The notes under the pieces: model-generated
Databases searched by the model: none
Seen by the model: only the letters and a program-made list of their open reading frames with translations
What the model was told of the DNA's origin: nothing
From: an uncultured archaeon
GTDB lineage: Archaea > Asgardarchaeota > Lokiarchaeia > Sigyniarchaeales > SOKP01
Length of the DNA: 60,776 bases
Direction of reading: 5' to 3'
Assembly (NCBI GenBank): GCA_964388035.1
Contig: CAYLZE010000017.1
Coordinates: forward strand, 1-60,776
Shown: positions 1-8,306 of the stretch, piece after piece
Layout of the letters: the number at the start of each line of letters is the position of its first letter
Position numbering within the stretch: the first letter of the stretch is position 1
Program-made: the position numbers and the translations under genes

Positions 1-189
1 TCCATACATTTGAGCAGGTTGGTTACCATAAGGTGAGGGCTGTGAATAAGGACTATAACCCGGCTTAGGTGCCCCATGTTCATAAGATTCTGCGCCAAAG
101 GGCTTATGTGGTAATTGCTCTCCACAATTTGGGCATACTATCCATGATTCTTCAACTTCTTCTCCACAAGAAGGACAGAATTTTGCCAC
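1..189 (-). CDS. Zinc-ribbon domain protein, N-terminal part (runs off window edge)
   Basis: Manual translation from GTG at 189: MAKFCPSCGEEVEESWIVCPNCGEQLP...YSPYSQPSPYGNQPAQMYG. Two CxxC knuckles are followed by a P/Y/Q-rich linker, and the frame is open to position 1. Confidence 0.8.
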   Translation of the reverse strand, partial: MAKFCPSCGEEVEESWIVCPNCGEQLPHKPFGAESYEHGAPKPGYSPYSQPSPYGNQPAQMYG

Positions 190-478
190 GTTATTAACAA
201 ATTTTTCTTTTTTTTGATAAATAATTATTTTAAGAATTAAAGTTTACTGGGAATGTTGAATAAATACAAATAGGTTTTGCACGTATTTATATTAAGAGAT
301 AATTTAATAGCATCCAAAATGAAAATTCTTTTATTTGTTAAGATTCTAACTTTATATTAAAATTATACGAAAAACCTCTTATCTTTGAAGCAAACCTTAT
401 TAATTTTCGATCATGATCGAGATTTAATTTCATTCCATTCCATCATGATAGGGAGAATTAAGAGCTATTAATTTAGAA

Positions 479-522
479 AATAAGAAATAAATGGTTGAAA
501 TGATTATAGATAACTTAATAAT
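479..522 (+). promoter_or_regulatory. 44-bp element upstream of tRNA-Arg(CCG), copy 1 of inverted pair
   Basis: AATAAGAAATAAATGGTTGAAATGATTATAGATAACTTAATAAT is 42/44 identical to the reverse complement of 3900-3943. It contains a TATA-like TTATAGAT about 32 nt upstream of the tRNA. Confidence 0.8.
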
Positions 523-542
523 ACTCTGAAATCGCTTTGAAT

Positions 543-647
543 GGCCTTGTAGCCTAGCATGGATGGGGCGCTGGCTTCCGGAGCCAGATATCGGGGGTTC
601 AATTTAATGTACCTTTCGTGCTTAAGGAACACATCCCTCCAAGGTCA
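543..647 (+). tRNA. tRNA-Arg(CCG) with 30-nt T-loop intron (603-632, position 58/59)
   Basis: Acceptor stem GGCCTTG/CAAGGTC, anticodon arm CTGGC-TTCCGGA-GCCAG, A20 Arg identity base. Removing 603-632 restores GGGGG-TTCAAAT-CCCTC. Central helix GUUC/GAAC has 3-nt bulges AAU and ACA. No encoded CCA. Confidence 0.93.
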
Positions 648-832
648 TGCTAATTTTTTAAACTTTATTGTAATCTCATTCTTTATAAATGGGCAAAAAA
701 AAAGTTCCGTGGAGAAAGGATAAAATGAAAAATCCCTTTCTCGAATTTCCGATATTGATTTATAGTATGATCATTTCAAAATGGAAAGTCAATATAAAAA
801 TAAAATAATAGTTGTGAAAAAAAAAAAATAAA

Positions 833-3283
833 CTAAGAAAGGATAATTTCCTTGGATTCTCTAGCTTCTAATTTTCGATACAGGACAACTTTTAAAAAGT
901 TTGCGGTTACAAAAGCTAAAAATGCATATATCCAAATAAAACCCGCTAAGGCCCAACCGATAGGTGCCATGAAAATTCCCATGGCCGCAAAGACCGTTGC
1001 GACAACTTGAGTAGATTCACATGTGATAAACAAGATTTTTGAAGGATAAGGTCTTTGCCAAAAATGATGCTCTTCGGTCCTGGTTAAATAGATCGTCATG
1101 TGTCCTCCGATGGCCAATTTTAAAAAGATTAGGGTTTGTAATGTTGCGAGATCGAGCAGTAATATATTTCTACCGATCACAAAAATTAAAAAGCTAAAAA
1201 ATACACCGATAACACCCAGTTCCGTTGCCGCAATTAACACGTTTCTCATTTTCCATCTGGCAGGAAAGGGCGATGGATTGGCATTATCAAATGCAATCGT
1301 CATGATCGGAAGGTCGTTCAAAAGTGCTAAGATGACAATCATTATTGCGGTTATTGGATAAAAATTGAAGAGTAAAATCGCGAGCACCAAAAAGATTAAA
1401 ACTCTTACGGTCTCAGCTATTCGATAAGTAGCATAGCTTTTCATCCGTTCAAATATTCTCCGACTTTCTACTGTTGCTCCGATAATTACCGAAAGTCCCG
1501 GTTCAGTCAAGACAATATCAGCGGCAGATTTAGCAACATCGGTAGCATTTGAGACCGCGATTCCCACATCAGCCTTCTTTAATGCAGGAGCATCGTTTAC
1601 TCCATCTCCCGTCATTCCGATTACGTGGCCTTTATTTTGAAGATCTTCGACAATCTTATATTTATGCTCGGGATACACTTCAGCAAATCCATTCGCACAT
1701 TCAGCGAGTTTTACGCATTCTTGTTCGCTATTTTCTAAAAGGGTAGTAGCGGTAACAAATTCTGTTCCCATTCCTAACTTTAAAGCCATTTCCTTGGCAA
1801 TTGCCACGTGGTCTCCCGTGACCATTTTGACATCCACGCACATCGATTTTGCCGTGTTGATCACTTCGGCAGAGTCCTGACGAGGCGGATCAAATAATGC
1901 GATGAGTCCTACATAATGCCATTCATTATCAGATCCTTTTTTTGCGACTCCTAAAGCACGATATCCTTGAGATGCAAAGAGTTTTCCTTTTTCTTCCACT
2001 CGTTGAGCTACATGATCCTTATTCGAAATTAGACCTAGGATTGTTTGGATTGCTCCTTTAGATACATCAATTATTGCCCCATCTTTCTCTACCATGGCTT
2101 CCGTCCTTTTTATGACAGGATCAAAGGGGGTAAAGGAGAGTAATTTATAACCGGAAGCATCTCCATTGAATTCTTTAAATTTGCTAAAAAATGCATCATC
2201 TATCGGGTCCTTATCCTCTTCTCTTGAGGCTAATACTCCGTACAAAATTACTTCTTCTGGGGTATAATTCTCAAAAGGCACGATTTCTCCAATAGATATT
2301 TTATTTTCTGTAATTGTTCCGGTTTTATCCGAACATAAAATATCCATGCTGGCTAGTTCTTCAATAGAGAGCAAGCGTTTCGCTATGGCTTTTTTCTTCG
2401 CTAAATCTGCGGCACCAACCGCCATCGAAACCATTAATACTGCGGGAAGGGCAACAGGAATTGCCGCAATAACCAGAACTAACGCAAATTGCAAGAGTTC
2501 AAAGAAATCTTGTCCCCTTAAAATGCCCACGATAAATACCAAGACGACCAAACTCACGGCGAGGATAATTAAATAGTTCCCTATTTTCACTACTGCTTTT
2601 TGAAAGTGACTCCTTGTTTTTGCCTCAGAAACTAAACTGGTTGTTTTTCCGAAAAAGGTGTTAACTCCCGTGCCAATTACTATTCCGTTCATTTCCCCTT
2701 TTTTAACGATGGCGCCCTCGTATGCAACATCACTTTTTCCCTTATTCACGGGTAAAGATTCTCCCGTTAAAGCGGATTCATCCAGATTAAGAAACTGCCC
2801 TTCAAAAAGCTTGATGTCTGCAGGAATAATGTCTCCTAATTTTATTCTTATTACATCCCCGGGTACTAAAAATTTTGCTTCTACATCTAACCATTTATTA
2901 TCACGCATCACTTTCGCATGCAAAGCTAATTTCTCCTTCAGCAATTCAACGGCGTTATCGGCTTTATATTCTTCCCAGAATCTTACGACAGCATTTATCA
3001 TTAACATGAGGAGAATTACAAAAAAATCATCCCAATGTTGAATAAAGAATGATAAAATGGCGGCTATTTCGATCATCCATGGAATGGGCCCCCAAAAATT
3101 GCTTAAAAATTTTAAGAGCGAACTTTGCTTCTTTTCAGGGACTTCATTGGAACCGTAGATCTTCAAGCGATTCTCGGCTTCCGTGCTTGTGAGACCTTTT
3201 TCATAGGTCTCAAATGTTTCTAATATTTCACCGATATCGTCATCTTTTTCTTCATCAATTGTTAAATAAATTGGTTTTAGCAA
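833..3283 (-). CDS. Plasma-membrane proton-efflux P-type ATPase (type IIIA)
   Basis: LTGES, IPVALP, DILCSDKTGT, GDGVNDAPALKKA motifs and TM6 LLND proton-acceptor Asp; 816 aa. Confidence 0.93.
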   Translation of the reverse strand: MLKPIYLTIDEEKDDDIGEILETFETYEKGLTSTEAENRLKIYGSNEVPEKKQSSLLKFLSNFWGPIPWMIEIAAILSFFIQHWDDFFVILLMLMINAVVRFWEEYKADNAVELLKEKLALHAKVMRDNKWLDVEAKFLVPGDVIRIKLGDIIPADIKLFEGQFLNLDESALTGESLPVNKGKSDVAYEGAIVKKGEMNGIVIGTGVNTFFGKTTSLVSEAKTRSHFQKAVVKIGNYLIILAVSLVVLVFIVGILRGQDFFELLQFALVLVIAAIPVALPAVLMVSMAVGAADLAKKKAIAKRLLSIEELASMDILCSDKTGTITENKISIGEIVPFENYTPEEVILYGVLASREEDKDPIDDAFFSKFKEFNGDASGYKLLSFTPFDPVIKRTEAMVEKDGAIIDVSKGAIQTILGLISNKDHVAQRVEEKGKLFASQGYRALGVAKKGSDNEWHYVGLIALFDPPRQDSAEVINTAKSMCVDVKMVTGDHVAIAKEMALKLGMGTEFVTATTLLENSEQECVKLAECANGFAEVYPEHKYKIVEDLQNKGHVIGMTGDGVNDAPALKKADVGIAVSNATDVAKSAADIVLTEPGLSVIIGATVESRRIFERMKSYATYRIAETVRVLIFLVLAILLFNFYPITAIMIVILALLNDLPIMTIAFDNANPSPFPARWKMRNVLIAATELGVIGVFFSFLIFVIGRNILLLDLATLQTLIFLKLAIGGHMTIYLTRTEEHHFWQRPYPSKILFITCESTQVVATVFAAMGIFMAPIGWALAGFIWIYAFLAFVTANFLKVVLYRKLEARESKEIILS

Positions 3284-3393
3284 TATCTATTCATCTTTTT
3301 AACAGTTATTTTATCTAACAAGTAAGATGTTTGTGATAAGCTTATGCATTACACTTAGAATAAAAAATTGGGTTAAAATCTTTCATGAGGTAA

Positions 3394-3711
3394 GAAAAAA
3401 GGGGCAAATATTTCAAAATTGAAGTAGTTAAATTTATTAAGTTTGTAAAATTTAATGACAAGGAAACCAATAAAGTTTCTTTCAACTTTTTCGCAATTAA
3501 CTACTTACAATATGAAGAACTCGCTAATCTAAATGGCGGATTTAGATATGTAGAAGAAATTAACATTGGTATCAGATTTTTGAATCCTAAACATTCTTTT
3601 CAAGATATTTCAACCCCTATATATAATCAAAACCAAATTTCCAACTTGCTTTTCTTAGTTATGTGGGAATGGATTTATGATAATGGTTTATTCTCTCTAT
3701 CTTTAGAATGA
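3394..3711 (+). other. Stop-free 105-codon reading frame without a canonical start (orphan gene or remnant)
   Basis: EKRGKYFKIEVVKF...VMWEWIYDNGLFSLSLE*. SD-like GAGGT lies at 3387-3391, with AGG at 3400 where an ATG would be expected. Confidence 0.45.
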
Positions 3712-3752
3712 TTCAAATAAATCGCAAGAATATTTTAAGACAAGGATTGAAA

Positions 3753-3856
3753 TGACCTAGGGGGGATTTGAACCCCCGATGTCTGGGAACGGCAAGCCCC
3801 TAATAGGGGACTTGGCTCCGCAAGCCAGCGCCCTATCCATGCTGGACCACTAGGTC
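3753..3856 (-). tRNA. tRNA-Arg(GCG) with 29-nt intron in the anticodon stem (3787-3815, position 39/40)
   Basis: Acceptor stem GACCTAG/CTAGGTC and T arm GGGGG-TTCAAAT-CCCCC. Removing CCAAGTCCCCTATTAGGGGCTTGCCGTTC restores CTGGC-TTGCGGA-GCCAG. Central helix GCGG/CCGU, bulge AGC, strong intron hairpin. No encoded CCA. Confidence 0.93.
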
Positions 3857-3899
3857 AATAAATTCAGATATTTACAGTAGCAATACATGTTTTGACTCG

Positions 3900-3943
3900 A
3901 TTATTAAATTATCTATAATTATTTCAACCATTTATTTCTTATT
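3900..3943 (-). promoter_or_regulatory. 44-bp element upstream of tRNA-Arg(GCG), copy 2 of inverted pair
   Basis: Minus strand reads AATAAGAAATAAATGGTTGAAATAATTATAGATAATTTAATAAT, with 2 mismatches to 479-522. Confidence 0.8.
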
Positions 3944-4056
3944 CTCATTTCCAAGAATTGTTTTCAATAGGTTAGAGAAAATGCTTTTAGATCTCAGATA
4001 TTTACAAAAACGATACATGATTTAAAATTATATAAAAGGAAAGATTCTATGGAATA

Positions 4057-4722
4057 ATGTACGAGGATTATTGCGTGATTTTTGACATGGATGGGGTACT
4101 GGCAGATACCGGTCCGATTCATTTTAAAAGCTGGAAAAAAGTGGCCGAAGAGGAGGCAAGCGTGGAATTTACGAGAGCATTTTTTAATGCTACGTTTGGT
4201 CAGCAATCTATACCCATTACACGAAGATTAGTAGGTCCTAAGATAGACCAGAAGTTGGTAGAAAAATGGGCAAACTTGAAGGAAGAATATTATAGAGAAA
4301 TGGTAAAGGATGATTTAAAGCCATTGCCAGGTGTGATTGAATTAATTAATGATTTGAAAACTCGCAAGTTTCGTTTAGCCGTGGGCTCCAGTGGTCCCCC
4401 TGAAAACGTGGAATTGCTTCTGTCAAGCTTGAACATAAAAAAATATTTTGATGTCGTGATAACGGCTGCAGATGTTGAAAATGGAAAGCCCTCTCCAGAT
4501 GTATTCCTCCTTGTCGCAAAAAGATTGAACCTCCCATTAAAGCATTGCTTGGTGATTGAGGATGCTCCCGTGGGGATTGAAGCGGCAACTCGGGCAAAAA
4601 TGAAGTGCATTGCTCTTACCACGACTCATGAGGAGAAGGAATTAACTCAAGCGAATCTAATTATAAAAGACTTGTCGCAAATAACAGCGAATGAGGTAAT
4701 CCGTTTACTCTATACGGAGTAA
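4057..4722 (+). CDS. HAD-superfamily phosphatase (beta-phosphoglucomutase-like)
   Basis: FDMDGVL, GSS, GKPSPD and IEDAPVG motifs. Confidence 0.9.
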   Translation: MYEDYCVIFDMDGVLADTGPIHFKSWKKVAEEEASVEFTRAFFNATFGQQSIPITRRLVGPKIDQKLVEKWANLKEEYYREMVKDDLKPLPGVIELINDLKTRKFRLAVGSSGPPENVELLLSSLNIKKYFDVVITAADVENGKPSPDVFLLVAKRLNLPLKHCLVIEDAPVGIEAATRAKMKCIALTTTHEEKELTQANLIIKDLSQITANEVIRLLYTE

Positions 4723-4901
4723 TATTCTTTAAAACTTGAATAGTTAGATTATATTTAATTTAAAGGACATTACGGATTCATTCTGTCTTTAAATTGATCA
4801 GAAAAGGCATGGAATTCCTATAAGTTTAACTTGAATGAAATTAATTTTTGTGTTAAGTCTCATGGATTTAATTTGGAATTAACAGAGAATAAAAAAAACA
4901 C

Positions 4902-5822
4902 GTGTCCTTAAAAATAATATTATTAAAAAGGCCTCTTATTTCCTTCTTTGTCTTAACATATTTAATTTCCTGGTTGATTTGGTTTCCCGTGGTGATCTAT
5001 TATTATTTGAATCCGTTTCCTCTTTCATTTTCCAGCACTCCATTATCATTAATATTAATCACGTTTCTGGGATTTTTTGGGCCTACTTTTGCAGCAATGA
5101 TCATGGCAATACTCCAGAACGATAAGGCAGGATTGGGTAAGTTATTTTCCCGATGGAAGATATGGAAGGTAGGGGTTCAATGGTATTTAGTGATTCCTAT
5201 CTTTTTTTTAACGCTTTCATTTATTGCACTTCAGCTTTATATTTTCTTTGACATGGTAAGTCCTGAAGTAAATTGGGGCATGTTATATCTAATTATTCCC
5301 TCCTTCATTCAAGCTGCCATTATCGGAGGATCAATCGCCGAAGAAACGGGATGGCGGGGATATGCCCTTCCCAATTTAATGAAATCACGGAACGCATTAA
5401 CTTCGAGCTTGATAATAGGCGTAATATGGGGTTTTTGGCATTTTCCCTTGCTTTTAATACCTGGAGCTAACATTCCCGTTCCCTTAAATGTTTCTAGCTT
5501 ATCTCTATTTGTATTAAATTCCATTGCTCTCTCGGTCATTATAGCGTGGCTGTTCAATAATACTCGGGGAAGCGTATTCATTACTTATCTCTTCCATACT
5601 GCGGCAAATTCGATATCCTTACTTTCTATTGTTTACAAATTCAGCGATTTTCAAACCGCTTGGTTGGATTACATGTGGTTTAATCTCTTGATAAAAGGAA
5701 TCTTTTTAGCGTTTCTTATCGTTTTTTTCCGACCCACTTTCCTTTCCCGGCAATTTGAAGCCAAGGAGAATTTTTTGATTGCCTTAGGAATAGTAGAATC
5801 TAATGAAGAGGGAGGAAAATAG
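4902..5822 (+). CDS. CPBP/Abi (CAAX protease II) intramembrane protease
   Basis: EETGWRGY, WGFWH and HTAAN motifs; multiple TM helices. Confidence 0.88.
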   Translation: MSLKIILLKRPLISFFVLTYLISWLIWFPVVIYYYLNPFPLSFSSTPLSLILITFLGFFGPTFAAMIMAILQNDKAGLGKLFSRWKIWKVGVQWYLVIPIFFLTLSFIALQLYIFFDMVSPEVNWGMLYLIIPSFIQAAIIGGSIAEETGWRGYALPNLMKSRNALTSSLIIGVIWGFWHFPLLLIPGANIPVPLNVSSLSLFVLNSIALSVIIAWLFNNTRGSVFITYLFHTAANSISLLSIVYKFSDFQTAWLDYMWFNLLIKGIFLAFLIVFFRPTFLSRQFEAKENFLIALGIVESNEEGGK

Positions 5823-5997
5823 CCATAATTTATTCATTACTCATTATATGATTATTTTCTTTTTATTTTCCTTATATTTTTATAGTACGGAAGCTTTAAT
5901 CTCAAAATTCATGGGGCAAGGTCAGAGGAAAGCAGAAGTATCGAGTATAAAAAAAATAATTTAAATATTACAAGGAAGTTTTTATACTAATAGTATC

Positions 5998-6666
5998 ATG
6001 ATTTTTTTATGTTTAGGGAATTCTTTAACGGCGGGAACTCCAGGTCATGATCCGTCTCCGGATGGTATCTCTCCGGGATATGGAAATGTAGAATCTCAAT
6101 ATCAATTTTGGCTTAAAATCGAATGCTTGGACTTTTTTGAAAAGAATTTAGGACAAGTGGATGATTTCATCGTAGAAAAATTAGAATTTATTAATAAGGG
6201 AGTTTCAGGGGAATTAACCGGTGAATTATTACAAAGAATTGAATTGGAAATTGAAAATGCGATATTTAAACCCGATTATTGCATTATTATTGAGGGAACG
6301 AACGATCTTGGTTGGAACATTCCCGTTGAGGAGATCTTTTTACATATTAAGCAAATGCATGAAATTTCCCATAGCATGGAAATAGATTCAATCGGAGCTA
6401 CCATTCCTCCTGTACTAGGGGAGGAATCTTATCCCATCTATAAGGAAAATAAACGATTAATCAACGAGAAATTAATCCACTTTTTTGAGGATATGCAAAT
6501 CCCCCATGCAGACCTATATAAGAAAATGATAGATGAGAAGGGAAATTTAAAAGCAGAGTTGGCGTACTTGGATGGTCTTCATTTTTCCGTTAGAGGATAT
6601 CAAGAAATGGGGAAAATTATTTTTAACGATGTTATTCATGATTTGTTAGAACATGAGTTTTTTTGA
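5998..6666 (+). CDS. SGNH/GDSL hydrolase
   Basis: GNSLT, NKGVSG, GTND and DGLH blocks. Confidence 0.87.
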   Translation: MIFLCLGNSLTAGTPGHDPSPDGISPGYGNVESQYQFWLKIECLDFFEKNLGQVDDFIVEKLEFINKGVSGELTGELLQRIELEIENAIFKPDYCIIIEGTNDLGWNIPVEEIFLHIKQMHEISHSMEIDSIGATIPPVLGEESYPIYKENKRLINEKLIHFFEDMQIPHADLYKKMIDEKGNLKAELAYLDGLHFSVRGYQEMGKIIFNDVIHDLLEHEFF

Positions 6667-6732
6667 TTTCCGCTAAAAAATGGAATGTTGATTTAATTAA
6701 TGACTTATATAATTAGTATTATTCTGGAATTT

Positions 6733-8229
6733 TCAGGTAGTGGGTTGCGGAGATGAATACCAATAACCCAACATGTGTTGGTACATTTTGTTAAAGTCCT
6801 TTAGTAATTCCTTATATTTAGCTGCCGTAATTTTTTCTGGATTCACTATCACGTTCTTAGAATCGTTGGAGTGGTCAATAGTAGAGAAATCTTTGAGCAA
6901 TCCTAAGCCATACGAAGCTAAAAGTCCGCATCCCCGCAAGCTAGCTTCTGGCTGATCTGTTATAATGTGGGGTACCTGCATGACATTGGCTTTAATTTGA
7001 TATAGTAATTTATTTCTGGTTGCACCCCCCACGGAGATTACCCGTTGAATATCTACCCCCAGTTCTTTAAAATTATGAAAATCTTTTCCTAAAGCTAAAG
7101 CAACGCCTTCCATGATAGCTCTTGCAAAATGGGCGGCATGATGGTTTAAATTCAGACCAAAAAAGCATCCACGTGCTAAAACATTTTCTGGGCGTCTTTC
7201 TCCTAAGAAATAGGGATAAAATAGCAATCCATCAGAACCAATGGGAACTTGTTTTGCCATCTGGATCATTTTTCCATAAGAAACCTCCTCCCCGATTGAG
7301 CTAAGAAAGTCTTTACACCATTTCATGCTCAATCCCCCGCAATCCAGCAGGGTAAACGGAACCCATCCTTCAATCACATGCTTTAAATTTTGGATGGAAG
7401 GATGTATTATCGGTTTATCTCTCTGTACCACGAATAGTGTGCTTGTACCAGTCATATCCACAGCATTTCCTCCTCCAACAAGCCCTAATCCTAATAAAGA
7501 AACGATGAAATCACCCCCTCCTGCAAAAACTGAGATCCCCTGTGGCAAGCCTAATTCATCAGCGATAGTATCCTTAATCGGACCAATTTTTTCATGAGAT
7601 TGATGTATGGGAGCAAACATATTCAAATCAATATCTAAAATATCTGCCATCTTCTCCGAATAATTATTTTTATTGAAATCATATAAATAAGTTCCTGAAG
7701 CTTCGCTCGGGTCCGTTGCCTTAATACTTGTAAGTTGAAAATTAATAAAATCTTTGGGTACCAAGAACACATCCGTTTTTTTGTATATATCTGGTTGGTT
7801 TTGTTTAATCCAGCTGACTTTTGCTCCCGGCCATCCTGTAGTGATGGGATTACCTGTTATGCAGGCAAGTTCATTTTCATCATGATCTTTTCTGATTTGC
7901 TTACAAATATTTTCACATCGTTTATCCATCCATATTTGGGTCCATTCTGTGGTAATTTGACCATTTTCATCAATTCCTACGGGACCGTGCATTTGACCAC
8001 AAGCGCAAATAGCTTCTATAGTAGTAGGATCAATTGACTCCTTTTTTAAAAGAGAGAAAATTGTTTGTTTTACCAACTCCCACCACACTCGGGGCTTTTG
8101 TTGTGCCCATCCCGCATGTGGACTATCCACCTCTTGGGATACTTGGGATATATCTTGGATGGTTCCATCAATACCCACGATCGCGGCTCTTACACTTTGA
8201 GTTCCTAAATCAATTGCTAATATTTTCAT
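6733..8229 (-). CDS. FGGY-family carbohydrate kinase (xylulokinase-like)
   Basis: AIDLGTQS, GQMHG, GGGD, PYFLGER and VGGA motifs. Confidence 0.9.
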   Translation of the reverse strand: MKILAIDLGTQSVRAAIVGIDGTIQDISQVSQEVDSPHAGWAQQKPRVWWELVKQTIFSLLKKESIDPTTIEAICACGQMHGPVGIDENGQITTEWTQIWMDKRCENICKQIRKDHDENELACITGNPITTGWPGAKVSWIKQNQPDIYKKTDVFLVPKDFINFQLTSIKATDPSEASGTYLYDFNKNNYSEKMADILDIDLNMFAPIHQSHEKIGPIKDTIADELGLPQGISVFAGGGDFIVSLLGLGLVGGGNAVDMTGTSTLFVVQRDKPIIHPSIQNLKHVIEGWVPFTLLDCGGLSMKWCKDFLSSIGEEVSYGKMIQMAKQVPIGSDGLLFYPYFLGERRPENVLARGCFFGLNLNHHAAHFARAIMEGVALALGKDFHNFKELGVDIQRVISVGGATRNKLLYQIKANVMQVPHIITDQPEASLRGCGLLASYGLGLLKDFSTIDHSNDSKNVIVNPEKITAAKYKELLKDFNKMYQHMLGYWYSSPQPTT

Positions 8230-8306
8230 TCATGTCACAGTCATATATTTTCAAAAATAAAGTTTTAATGAGAAGGAATTGAGTAGAAAGAGAGAAGATG
8301 TTCAAA

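Follow-up and report, generated by a model that had tools for sequence, protein, structure and literature searches.

Two arginine tRNA genes that face one another across a proton-pump gene in an Asgard archaeon are each preceded by nearly the same short block of non-coding DNA. How did a block that is private to these two genes come to be more alike between them than the genes themselves? The question arises in a window of 60.8 kb, which is an entire contig (C17) of a 5.47-Mb genome assembly (G000; 33% G+C, 96.7% complete, 7.3% contamination). Close to the left end of this window, a tRNA-Arg(CCG) gene on the plus strand (543-647) and a tRNA-Arg(GCG) gene on the minus strand (3856-3753) point inwards, and between them lies the gene for a type IIIA plasma-membrane H+-ATPase (833..3283, minus strand). 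A 47-bp element is found upstream of each tRNA gene, at 476..522 on the plus strand and at 3900..3946 on the minus strand, so that the two copies form the arms of an inverted pair.

The original prediction, made from the sequence of the window, offered three readings of this pair: a dedicated regulatory element under strong selection, recent conversion or copying between the arms, or recombination sites that allow the intervening segment to invert. Comparison of the window with the rest of its genome, with relatives, and with the sole congener genome compared (G001) agrees best with the second. We consider it somewhat better than an even chance that the block upstream of the GCG gene was copied or converted to the upstream region of a paralogue, and that the pair came to enclose a newly gained gene for a type IIIA H+-ATPase. 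The events at this locus are of known kinds, namely the duplication or concerted evolution of a promoter, a shift of anticodon, and the insertion of a gene at a tRNA locus. It is most likely a product of ordinary genome tinkering, neither a switch nor a mobile element, and represents no new kind of system.

The inverted 47-bp pair

Positions 476-522 and the reverse complement of 3900-3946 are identical at 44 of 47 sites. The mismatches fall at positions 478, 502 and 514, and the longest exact run shared by the arms is 23 bp. The inverted repeat that had been reported over 479-522 and 3900-3943 (42/44 identical) is real. When searched against the whole genome, the match between the arms scores 71.9 bits, whereas 20 shuffled versions reach at most 40 bits. 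The similarity has sharp edges on both sides: neither the outer flanks nor the two leaders that separate the elements from their tRNA genes can be aligned. These leaders measure 20 nt before the CCG gene (523..542, plus strand) and 43 nt before the GCG gene (3857..3899, minus strand), and alignment of the former with the latter finds no similarity. An assembly artefact or a chance match is ruled out by the three mismatches, by the colinear ancestral context of the right arm (described below), and by the score of 71.9 against at most 40 bits. No other assembly of the locus was found, either in contig collections or by an exact-protein look-up, in other assemblies, of the hydrolase gene that follows the right arm.

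The element is confined to these two sites. No third copy of the 47-mer occurs in the 5.47-Mb genome at up to eight substitutions, and a 37-nt core has no copies, at up to three mismatches, in 100 genomes of the family. An exact core of 25-29 nt is likewise absent from the two public contig collections scanned, which hold genome and metagenome contigs. The 47-mer is missing upstream of 18 other tRNA genes of the same genome, and a de novo motif search upstream of those 18 genes returned no positionally consistent motif. A generic tRNA promoter, which would place the shorter 44-mer before most tRNA genes, is thus ruled out: there are two copies in 5.47 Mb, none before the 18 other tRNAs, no common motif, and only these two genes have the element. 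Another candidate, the string GATACATG as a promoter or initiator motif common to other tRNAs, was also rejected, as its 208 copies show no genome-wide enrichment and resemble those of comparable 8-mers.

The tRNA census on which part of this comparison rests is incomplete, since ARAGORN and Rfam miss or under-score intron-bearing tRNAs. In default mode, ARAGORN calls no tRNA at all across the 60.8-kb window, and the Rfam tRNA model gives 19 matches from the 150 of 325 candidate sites that were scored in the 5.47-Mb genome. Standard tRNA finders, it seems, overlook many intron-rich tRNA genes in this lineage.

No RNA structure was detected in the element or in the leaders, where folding z-scores range from -0.9 to +1.0, and an Rfam scan matched only the tRNAs. 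A structured or small RNA at these positions is ruled out by the two results together. Because RNA structure is lacking, the element most likely acts as DNA.

What it might do as DNA is suggested by its composition and position. The element consists of a TATA-like core, TTATAGAT, at 504-511, and about 28 bp further upstream; the core lies inside a near-palindrome, which reads AATTATAGATAATT in the right arm. TTATAGAT precedes the 5' end of the CCG tRNA by 39-32 nt, where the TATA box of an archaeal promoter served by TBP and TFB is normally located if the leader is short. The resemblance to archaeal tRNA promoters built from a B recognition element (BRE) and a TATA box extends to this AT-rich string some 35 nt upstream of the CCG tRNA, to the purine-rich sequence before it, and to the location of the element in a spacer between divergently transcribed genes. 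Unlike such promoters, the conserved block is 47 bp long, far longer than a core promoter, and private to two genes, and the element of the GCG gene lies 20-70 nt further upstream than usual. A 10-nt core, TTAT[AG]GA[TG][AC]A, is found again before tRNA-Arg(GCG) in metagenome contig L051 (48 nt upstream) and in genome G017 (51 nt upstream), against a background of 0.85% per 160-nt AT-rich window. We infer that the element is the promoter-bearing upstream region of tRNA-Arg(GCG). The phylum has, to our knowledge, few mapped transcription starts or none (no literature search was aimed at this), and the locus offers a candidate promoter sequence for it.

Synteny and history of the tRNA pair

The ancestral layout of the locus can be read from two syntenic anchors. 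On the left, the 5' part of a zinc-ribbon protein gene (1..189, minus strand; Pfam Zn_ribbon), cut by the contig end, matches the congener by tblastx (L011:7784-7900). On the right lies a gene for a HAD-family, beta-phosphoglucomutase-like hydrolase (4057..4722, plus strand; Pfam HAD_2, TIGR02009), transcribed divergently from tRNA-Arg(GCG). In the congener, the order is Zn-ribbon (minus), an intron-less tRNA-Arg(CCG) (minus), tRNA-Arg(GCG) (minus), HAD (plus) and then an iron alcohol dehydrogenase (Fe-ADH)-like gene, and no ATPase is present. Its tRNA-Arg(GCG) agrees with the GCG gene of the window both in position and in the site of the intron. The pairing of tRNA-Arg(GCG) with HAD is present in G001, G002, G003, G005, G012, G015, G016, G017 and L051, and in eight further relatives and metagenome contig L051 the tRNA gene is divergent from HAD without an ATPase. 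Given these ATPase-free loci, and given that the closest ATPases reside in other metagenome-assembled genomes (MAGs), the pump is, judged by gene order, a lineage-specific gain between two formerly tandem tRNA-Arg genes, of which the CCG gene is now reversed.

The same comparison assigns the two arms to different origins. The spacer between tRNA-Arg(GCG) and HAD in the congener contains an ungapped homologue of the element (L011:8470-8517), which is identical to the left arm at 34 of 47 sites and to the right arm at 32 of 47 (about 70%). Against the left arm, the score of this homologue was equalled by none of 1500 AT-rich background windows. Its distance from the start codon of HAD is 112 nt, compared with 110 nt for the right arm; in an otherwise poorly alignable spacer, the element is the sole recognisable stretch common to both genomes. 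Because the homologue is colinear with the right arm and lies at the same distance from HAD, the right arm is at the ancestral site, and the left arm, unique in the genome apart from its partner, is a secondary, derived copy. At the two arm differences that can be polarised, it is the left arm that keeps the state of the congener.

The relative divergences indicate when this copy was made. Between the two arms there are 3 differences, against 13-15 between either arm and the homologue in the congener. For the tRNA exons, the paralogues show 10 differences, compared with 8 between the GCG gene and its orthologue in the congener. The element and exon ratios thus run in opposite ways (Fisher p = 0.035-0.039). 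The original prediction had emphasised that the element is better conserved than the tRNAs. As a count this holds (3/47 against 10/75 differences, or 94% against 87% identity), but alone it is not significant (Fisher p = 0.37), and the contrast gets its weight from the orthologue comparison and not from the bare percentages. Taken together, the opposite paralogue and orthologue ratios, the differing intron sites, and the unalignable leaders suggest that the 47-mer was homogenised well after the tRNA bodies diverged. With moderate confidence, the tRNA bodies would have separated about as long ago as the two species, and the 47-mer would have been made uniform much later.

This pattern recalls concerted evolution by short-tract conversion, in which paralogous copies inverted within a few kilobases are far more alike than orthologous ones while their neighbours have diverged. 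It differs in that the tract is just a 47-bp non-coding block that excludes the adjoining tRNAs; conversion itself would be deduced from this pattern of identities.

The tRNA genes carry their own record. tRNA-Arg(CCG) comprises exons 543-602 and 633-647, separated by a 30-nt T-loop intron (603-632), and tRNA-Arg(GCG) comprises exons 3856-3816 and 3786-3753, separated by a 29-nt intron (3815-3787). The Rfam tRNA model gives the former just 21 bits, because of its intron, and the latter 46.2 bits; introns are the reason that ARAGORN and Rfam under-call both genes. Once spliced, the sequences are called by ARAGORN as tRNA-Arg(ccg) and tRNA-Arg(gcg), and both fold as cloverleaves. They are, as first described, two inward-facing tRNA-Arg genes with different anticodons and introns and 10 differences in 75 exon positions. 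The introns occupy different sites, and the 5' halves of the two tRNAs are identical at 29 of 31 bases.

The CCG gene is nearer to GCG genes than to other CCG genes. Its exons match GCG genes at 65/75 positions (own genome), 67/75 (G001) and 66/76 (L051), and match CCG genes at 57/75 (G001), 57/75 (G025) and 55/76 (G027), although sequences of some 75 nt cannot support a robust tree. In the incomplete census, no other CCG candidate of its genome has an intact anticodon arm, and neither a CCG gene of the type seen in the congener nor a remnant of one was found in the genome. Because of its resemblance to GCG genes, the CCG gene probably arose from the GCG lineage, and a G34-to-C anticodon change is, on these alignments, the origin that we favour with fair but limited confidence. 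Cases of tRNA remolding are similar in that the gene is nearer to those of another anticodon and occupies the interval in which the congener has a very different CCG gene. The present case is unlike them in that it rests on 75 nt, and a partial gene conversion from the GCG neighbour could mimic the shift.

Differences in intron content do not require separate gains. In this Promethearchaeota family, HAD-adjacent tRNA-Arg(GCG) genes carry between one and three introns, in combinations that vary by lineage; the sites are the D-loop, the region around 37-40, and 58/59 of the T-loop. All three are present in G004 (L026 on contig G004:C60 and L039 on G004:C74). The T-loop intron is kept in the GCG genes of G016 (L027), G012 (L030) and L051, and the 39/40 intron is kept in those of the congener and the window. 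Each of the six genes examined (L026, L039, L027, L030, L032 of G002, and L051) has a T-loop intron of 29-30 nt, and relatives have introns in the T-loop of their tRNA-Arg(CCT) and tRNA-Arg(TCG) genes as well. A multi-intron ancestor followed by loss of different introns in each paralogue would explain the two unlike genes of the window. The tRNA-Arg(GCG) genes of this family are a good system for the study of intron loss.

These observations could be joined into a single history. The right arm, 3900-3946, would be the original, situated in the spacer shared with the divergent HAD gene. An inverted paralogue reading CCG would have arisen from the GCG lineage via the G34-to-C change. After the tRNA bodies, introns and leaders had diverged, either the block by itself would have been copied or short-tract gene conversion would have made it uniform across the inverted arms, leaving the left arm, 476-522, as a second copy that now lies 20 nt before the inverted CCG paralogue. 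A type IIIA H+-ATPase gene, acquired horizontally or paralogously, would have been inserted between the tRNA genes, so that the arms now lie 3.4 kb apart. If so, the locus is a compact and datable record of the remodelling of a tRNA gene pair in an Asgard archaeon, in which an isoacceptor was probably replaced by an anticodon-changed paralogue, different introns were kept by the two paralogues, the new gene was supplied with a copied promoter block, and a proton-pump gene was gained between the tRNAs.

Several points weigh against this history. The first concerns the promoter. TTATAGAT lies 62-55 nt upstream of the GCG tRNA in the window and about 113 nt upstream of it in the congener, distances that imply long leaders or else another promoter. 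Likewise, the element as a whole lies 20 nt from the CCG tRNA, 43 nt from the GCG tRNA and about 95 nt from the GCG tRNA of the congener; a spacing to the GCG gene that shifts in this way sits uneasily with a core promoter, and the element could serve some other purpose. The case for a promoter draws on position and on a TATA-like string, of a kind that is frequent in DNA as AT-rich as this, and the recurrence of the 10-nt core is a weak test, as the core was defined after the sequences had been inspected. The contrast in divergence is drawn from small counts (p ~0.04), which makes it moderate, and from a single congener genome; moreover, the CCG tRNA may have evolved fast after its anticodon changed. 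The origin of the CCG gene in the GCG lineage is not secure either, as 75 nt cannot resolve the tree and the CCG genes of a sister family have the same anticodon stem as that of the window.

Other explanations of the inverted arms

The same block could be an old duplication, held at 94% identity purely by purifying selection, which acts as a dedicated regulatory site and co-regulates both CGN-decoding tRNA-Arg genes. A dimeric transcription factor might, for example, bind the near-palindrome AATTATAGATAATT and make further contacts upstream, and the site would have been duplicated together with the tRNA. This is the first of the three readings originally proposed, and part of it stands. The element is specific to these two genes and sharp-edged amid unalignable flanks, has a positional homologue in the congener that is the only recognisable part of the spacer, and shares its core with sequences before the GCG genes of L051 and G017. 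However, the orthologue in the congener is just 68-72% identical, and a force that holds paralogues at 94% should hold orthologues too. The distance to the tRNA also varies widely (20, 43 and about 95 nt), and no regulator is named. Selection by itself is therefore a minority explanation, to which we assign perhaps one chance in a handful. Inversion is less probable still, and we regard it as doubtful. According to this proposal, the 47-mers allow the 3.4-kb segment with both tRNAs and the ATPase to flip, in a programmed manner or by incidental homologous recombination. The geometry is suitable, the exact run of 23 bp is available to pair, and local inverted repeats are rare in the genome, which has two pairs within 10 kb at E <= 1e-4, 476-522/3900-3946 among them. 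Short inverted repeats around a segment of a few kilobases are also what is seen in Hin/Gin/Cin and Fim-type switches. Yet in contrast to those systems there is no adjacent or fitting recombinase gene. The genome has no match to the Resolvase family of serine recombinases and a single match to Phage_integrase, the tyrosine recombinase family, on another contig (C48). The six neighbouring genes (Zn-ribbon, ATPase, HAD, CAAX protease, GDSL lipase and FGGY kinase) include no recombinase, the left side being bounded by the contig end. Because the elements at both ends are identical, and each flipped tRNA would still follow such an element with its own leader, an inversion would switch nothing, and the promoter-in/promoter-out logic of the known switches is missing; the orientation of the segment is known from one assembly. 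Finally, tRNA-Arg(GCG) stands in its ancestral position and orientation beside HAD. The reading of the segment as invertible is thus unsupported, although an incidental homologous inversion is possible.

The least probable of these accounts, and in our view a very improbable one, takes the arms for terminal inverted repeats of a mobile element whose cargo was the ATPase, alone or together with the tRNAs. A 47-bp inverted pair does bracket a gene that is absent from the congener, but the right arm has a colinear homologue at the cargo-free site of that same congener, and the repeat has two copies in its genome and none in 100 relatives. No transposase is present, and neither repeats of this kind nor tRNAs accompany the closest homologues of the ATPase. 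The flanks, ...AATTTA and ATTTCC..., form no convincing target-site duplication, in keeping with the earlier remark that neither a recombinase nor such a duplication is visible. By the same tests (a repeat homologue at the cargo-free site of G001, two copies, no clear duplication), a transposon or miniature inverted-repeat transposable element (MITE) is ruled out. A tRNA-targeting integrative element was rejected because the repeats are inverted and outside the tRNAs, no integrase is encoded on the contig, and the spacers contain no tRNA remnant; a homing-endonuclease cassette was rejected because there is no endonuclease and no Pfam match in the spacers, and the repeats are not direct. A staggered-break inversion predicts either that the GCG gene is away from HAD or that both tRNAs are co-oriented, and neither is seen.

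A variant of the copying and conversion account, which we hold to be unlikely, is that the 47-mers double as a recombination pair. Exchange between the arms, or between the tRNA 5' halves, would then sometimes flip the pump segment or swap tRNA halves, and would keep the arms alike. If true, ectopic conversion would copy short promoter cassettes between Asgard paralogues, as a regular way of wiring new tRNA genes. The locus is a concrete site at which gene conversion or inversion can be sought in long-read data.

The proton pump and neighbouring features

The identification of the pump as a type IIIA H+-ATPase is confirmed by TIGR01647, which matches over model positions 1-754 of 755 with 998.5 bits, against a cut-off of 615.5; the Pfam families E1-E2_ATPase, Cation_ATPase_N and Hydrolase match as well. 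Its closest relatives, in other Promethearchaeota MAGs, are 76-77% identical in amino acid sequence. The genome carries three type IIIA paralogues, and those at C133:187-2610 and C49:31451-33799 are 70% and 56% identical to the window copy, which is therefore nearer to the copies of other MAGs than to the C133 paralogue. The orthologous locus lacks the ATPase in the congener and in seven other relatives, and the congener has no type IIIA ATPase, its best match anywhere being 35% identical. Joint arrival of the ATPase with the CCG tRNA was considered and rejected: the nine closest homologues of the ATPase have no neighbouring tRNA, and the 37 closest ATPase loci contain no tRNA-Arg pattern. In G012, two type IIIA copies stand in tandem (L021).

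The stretch between the pump and the GCG gene (3284..3752) is a unique sequence of 469 nt in which an orphan frame had been noted. A frame does run from stop to stop at 3394-3711, over 105 codons, but as a gene it has little to recommend it: no ATG, GTG or TTG start gives at least 50 amino acids, there is no Pfam match, and the genome contains no paralogue. Judged by these features, the frame, like the stretch around it, is probably non-coding. No tRNA remnant was found in this stretch or in the spacers.

On the other side of the GCG gene, a 30-nt direct repeat flanks the right 47-mer. Its first copy, D1a (3864-3893), is held within the 43-nt leader, and its second, D1b (3994..4023, plus strand), is identical to D1a at 25 of 30 positions and starts 130 nt away. 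The two form the top direct-repeat family within the first 6 kb, and may be a small tandem duplication in the spacer between the tRNA and HAD.

Beyond HAD, the window contains about 3.6 kb (4723-8294) that is extra relative to L011 (G001:C57) and carries the CAAX protease, GDSL lipase and FGGY kinase genes; the Fe-ADH-like gene follows at 8.3-9.5 kb. As the GDSL lipase gene adjoins HAD in G003, G005 and G016, a loss in the congener may explain its absence there. The CAAX protease gene (4902-5822) seems to be peculiar to this genome.

Two further kinds of repeat were observed elsewhere in the genome. Exact 55-nt direct repeats, about 101 nt apart, occur on at least six contigs (C8:3021-3230, C41:7120-7329, C66:19089-19298, C76:3033-3242, C109:12313-12587 and C169:2028-2460), and could belong to a dispersed family of repeats or to a tandem array. 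At E <= 1e-4, the genome has just one other local inverted repeat (C181:2-77 and 5084-5159), which is 76 nt long and 93% identical, with copies 5 kb apart at a contig end, and may represent the ends of an insertion sequence.

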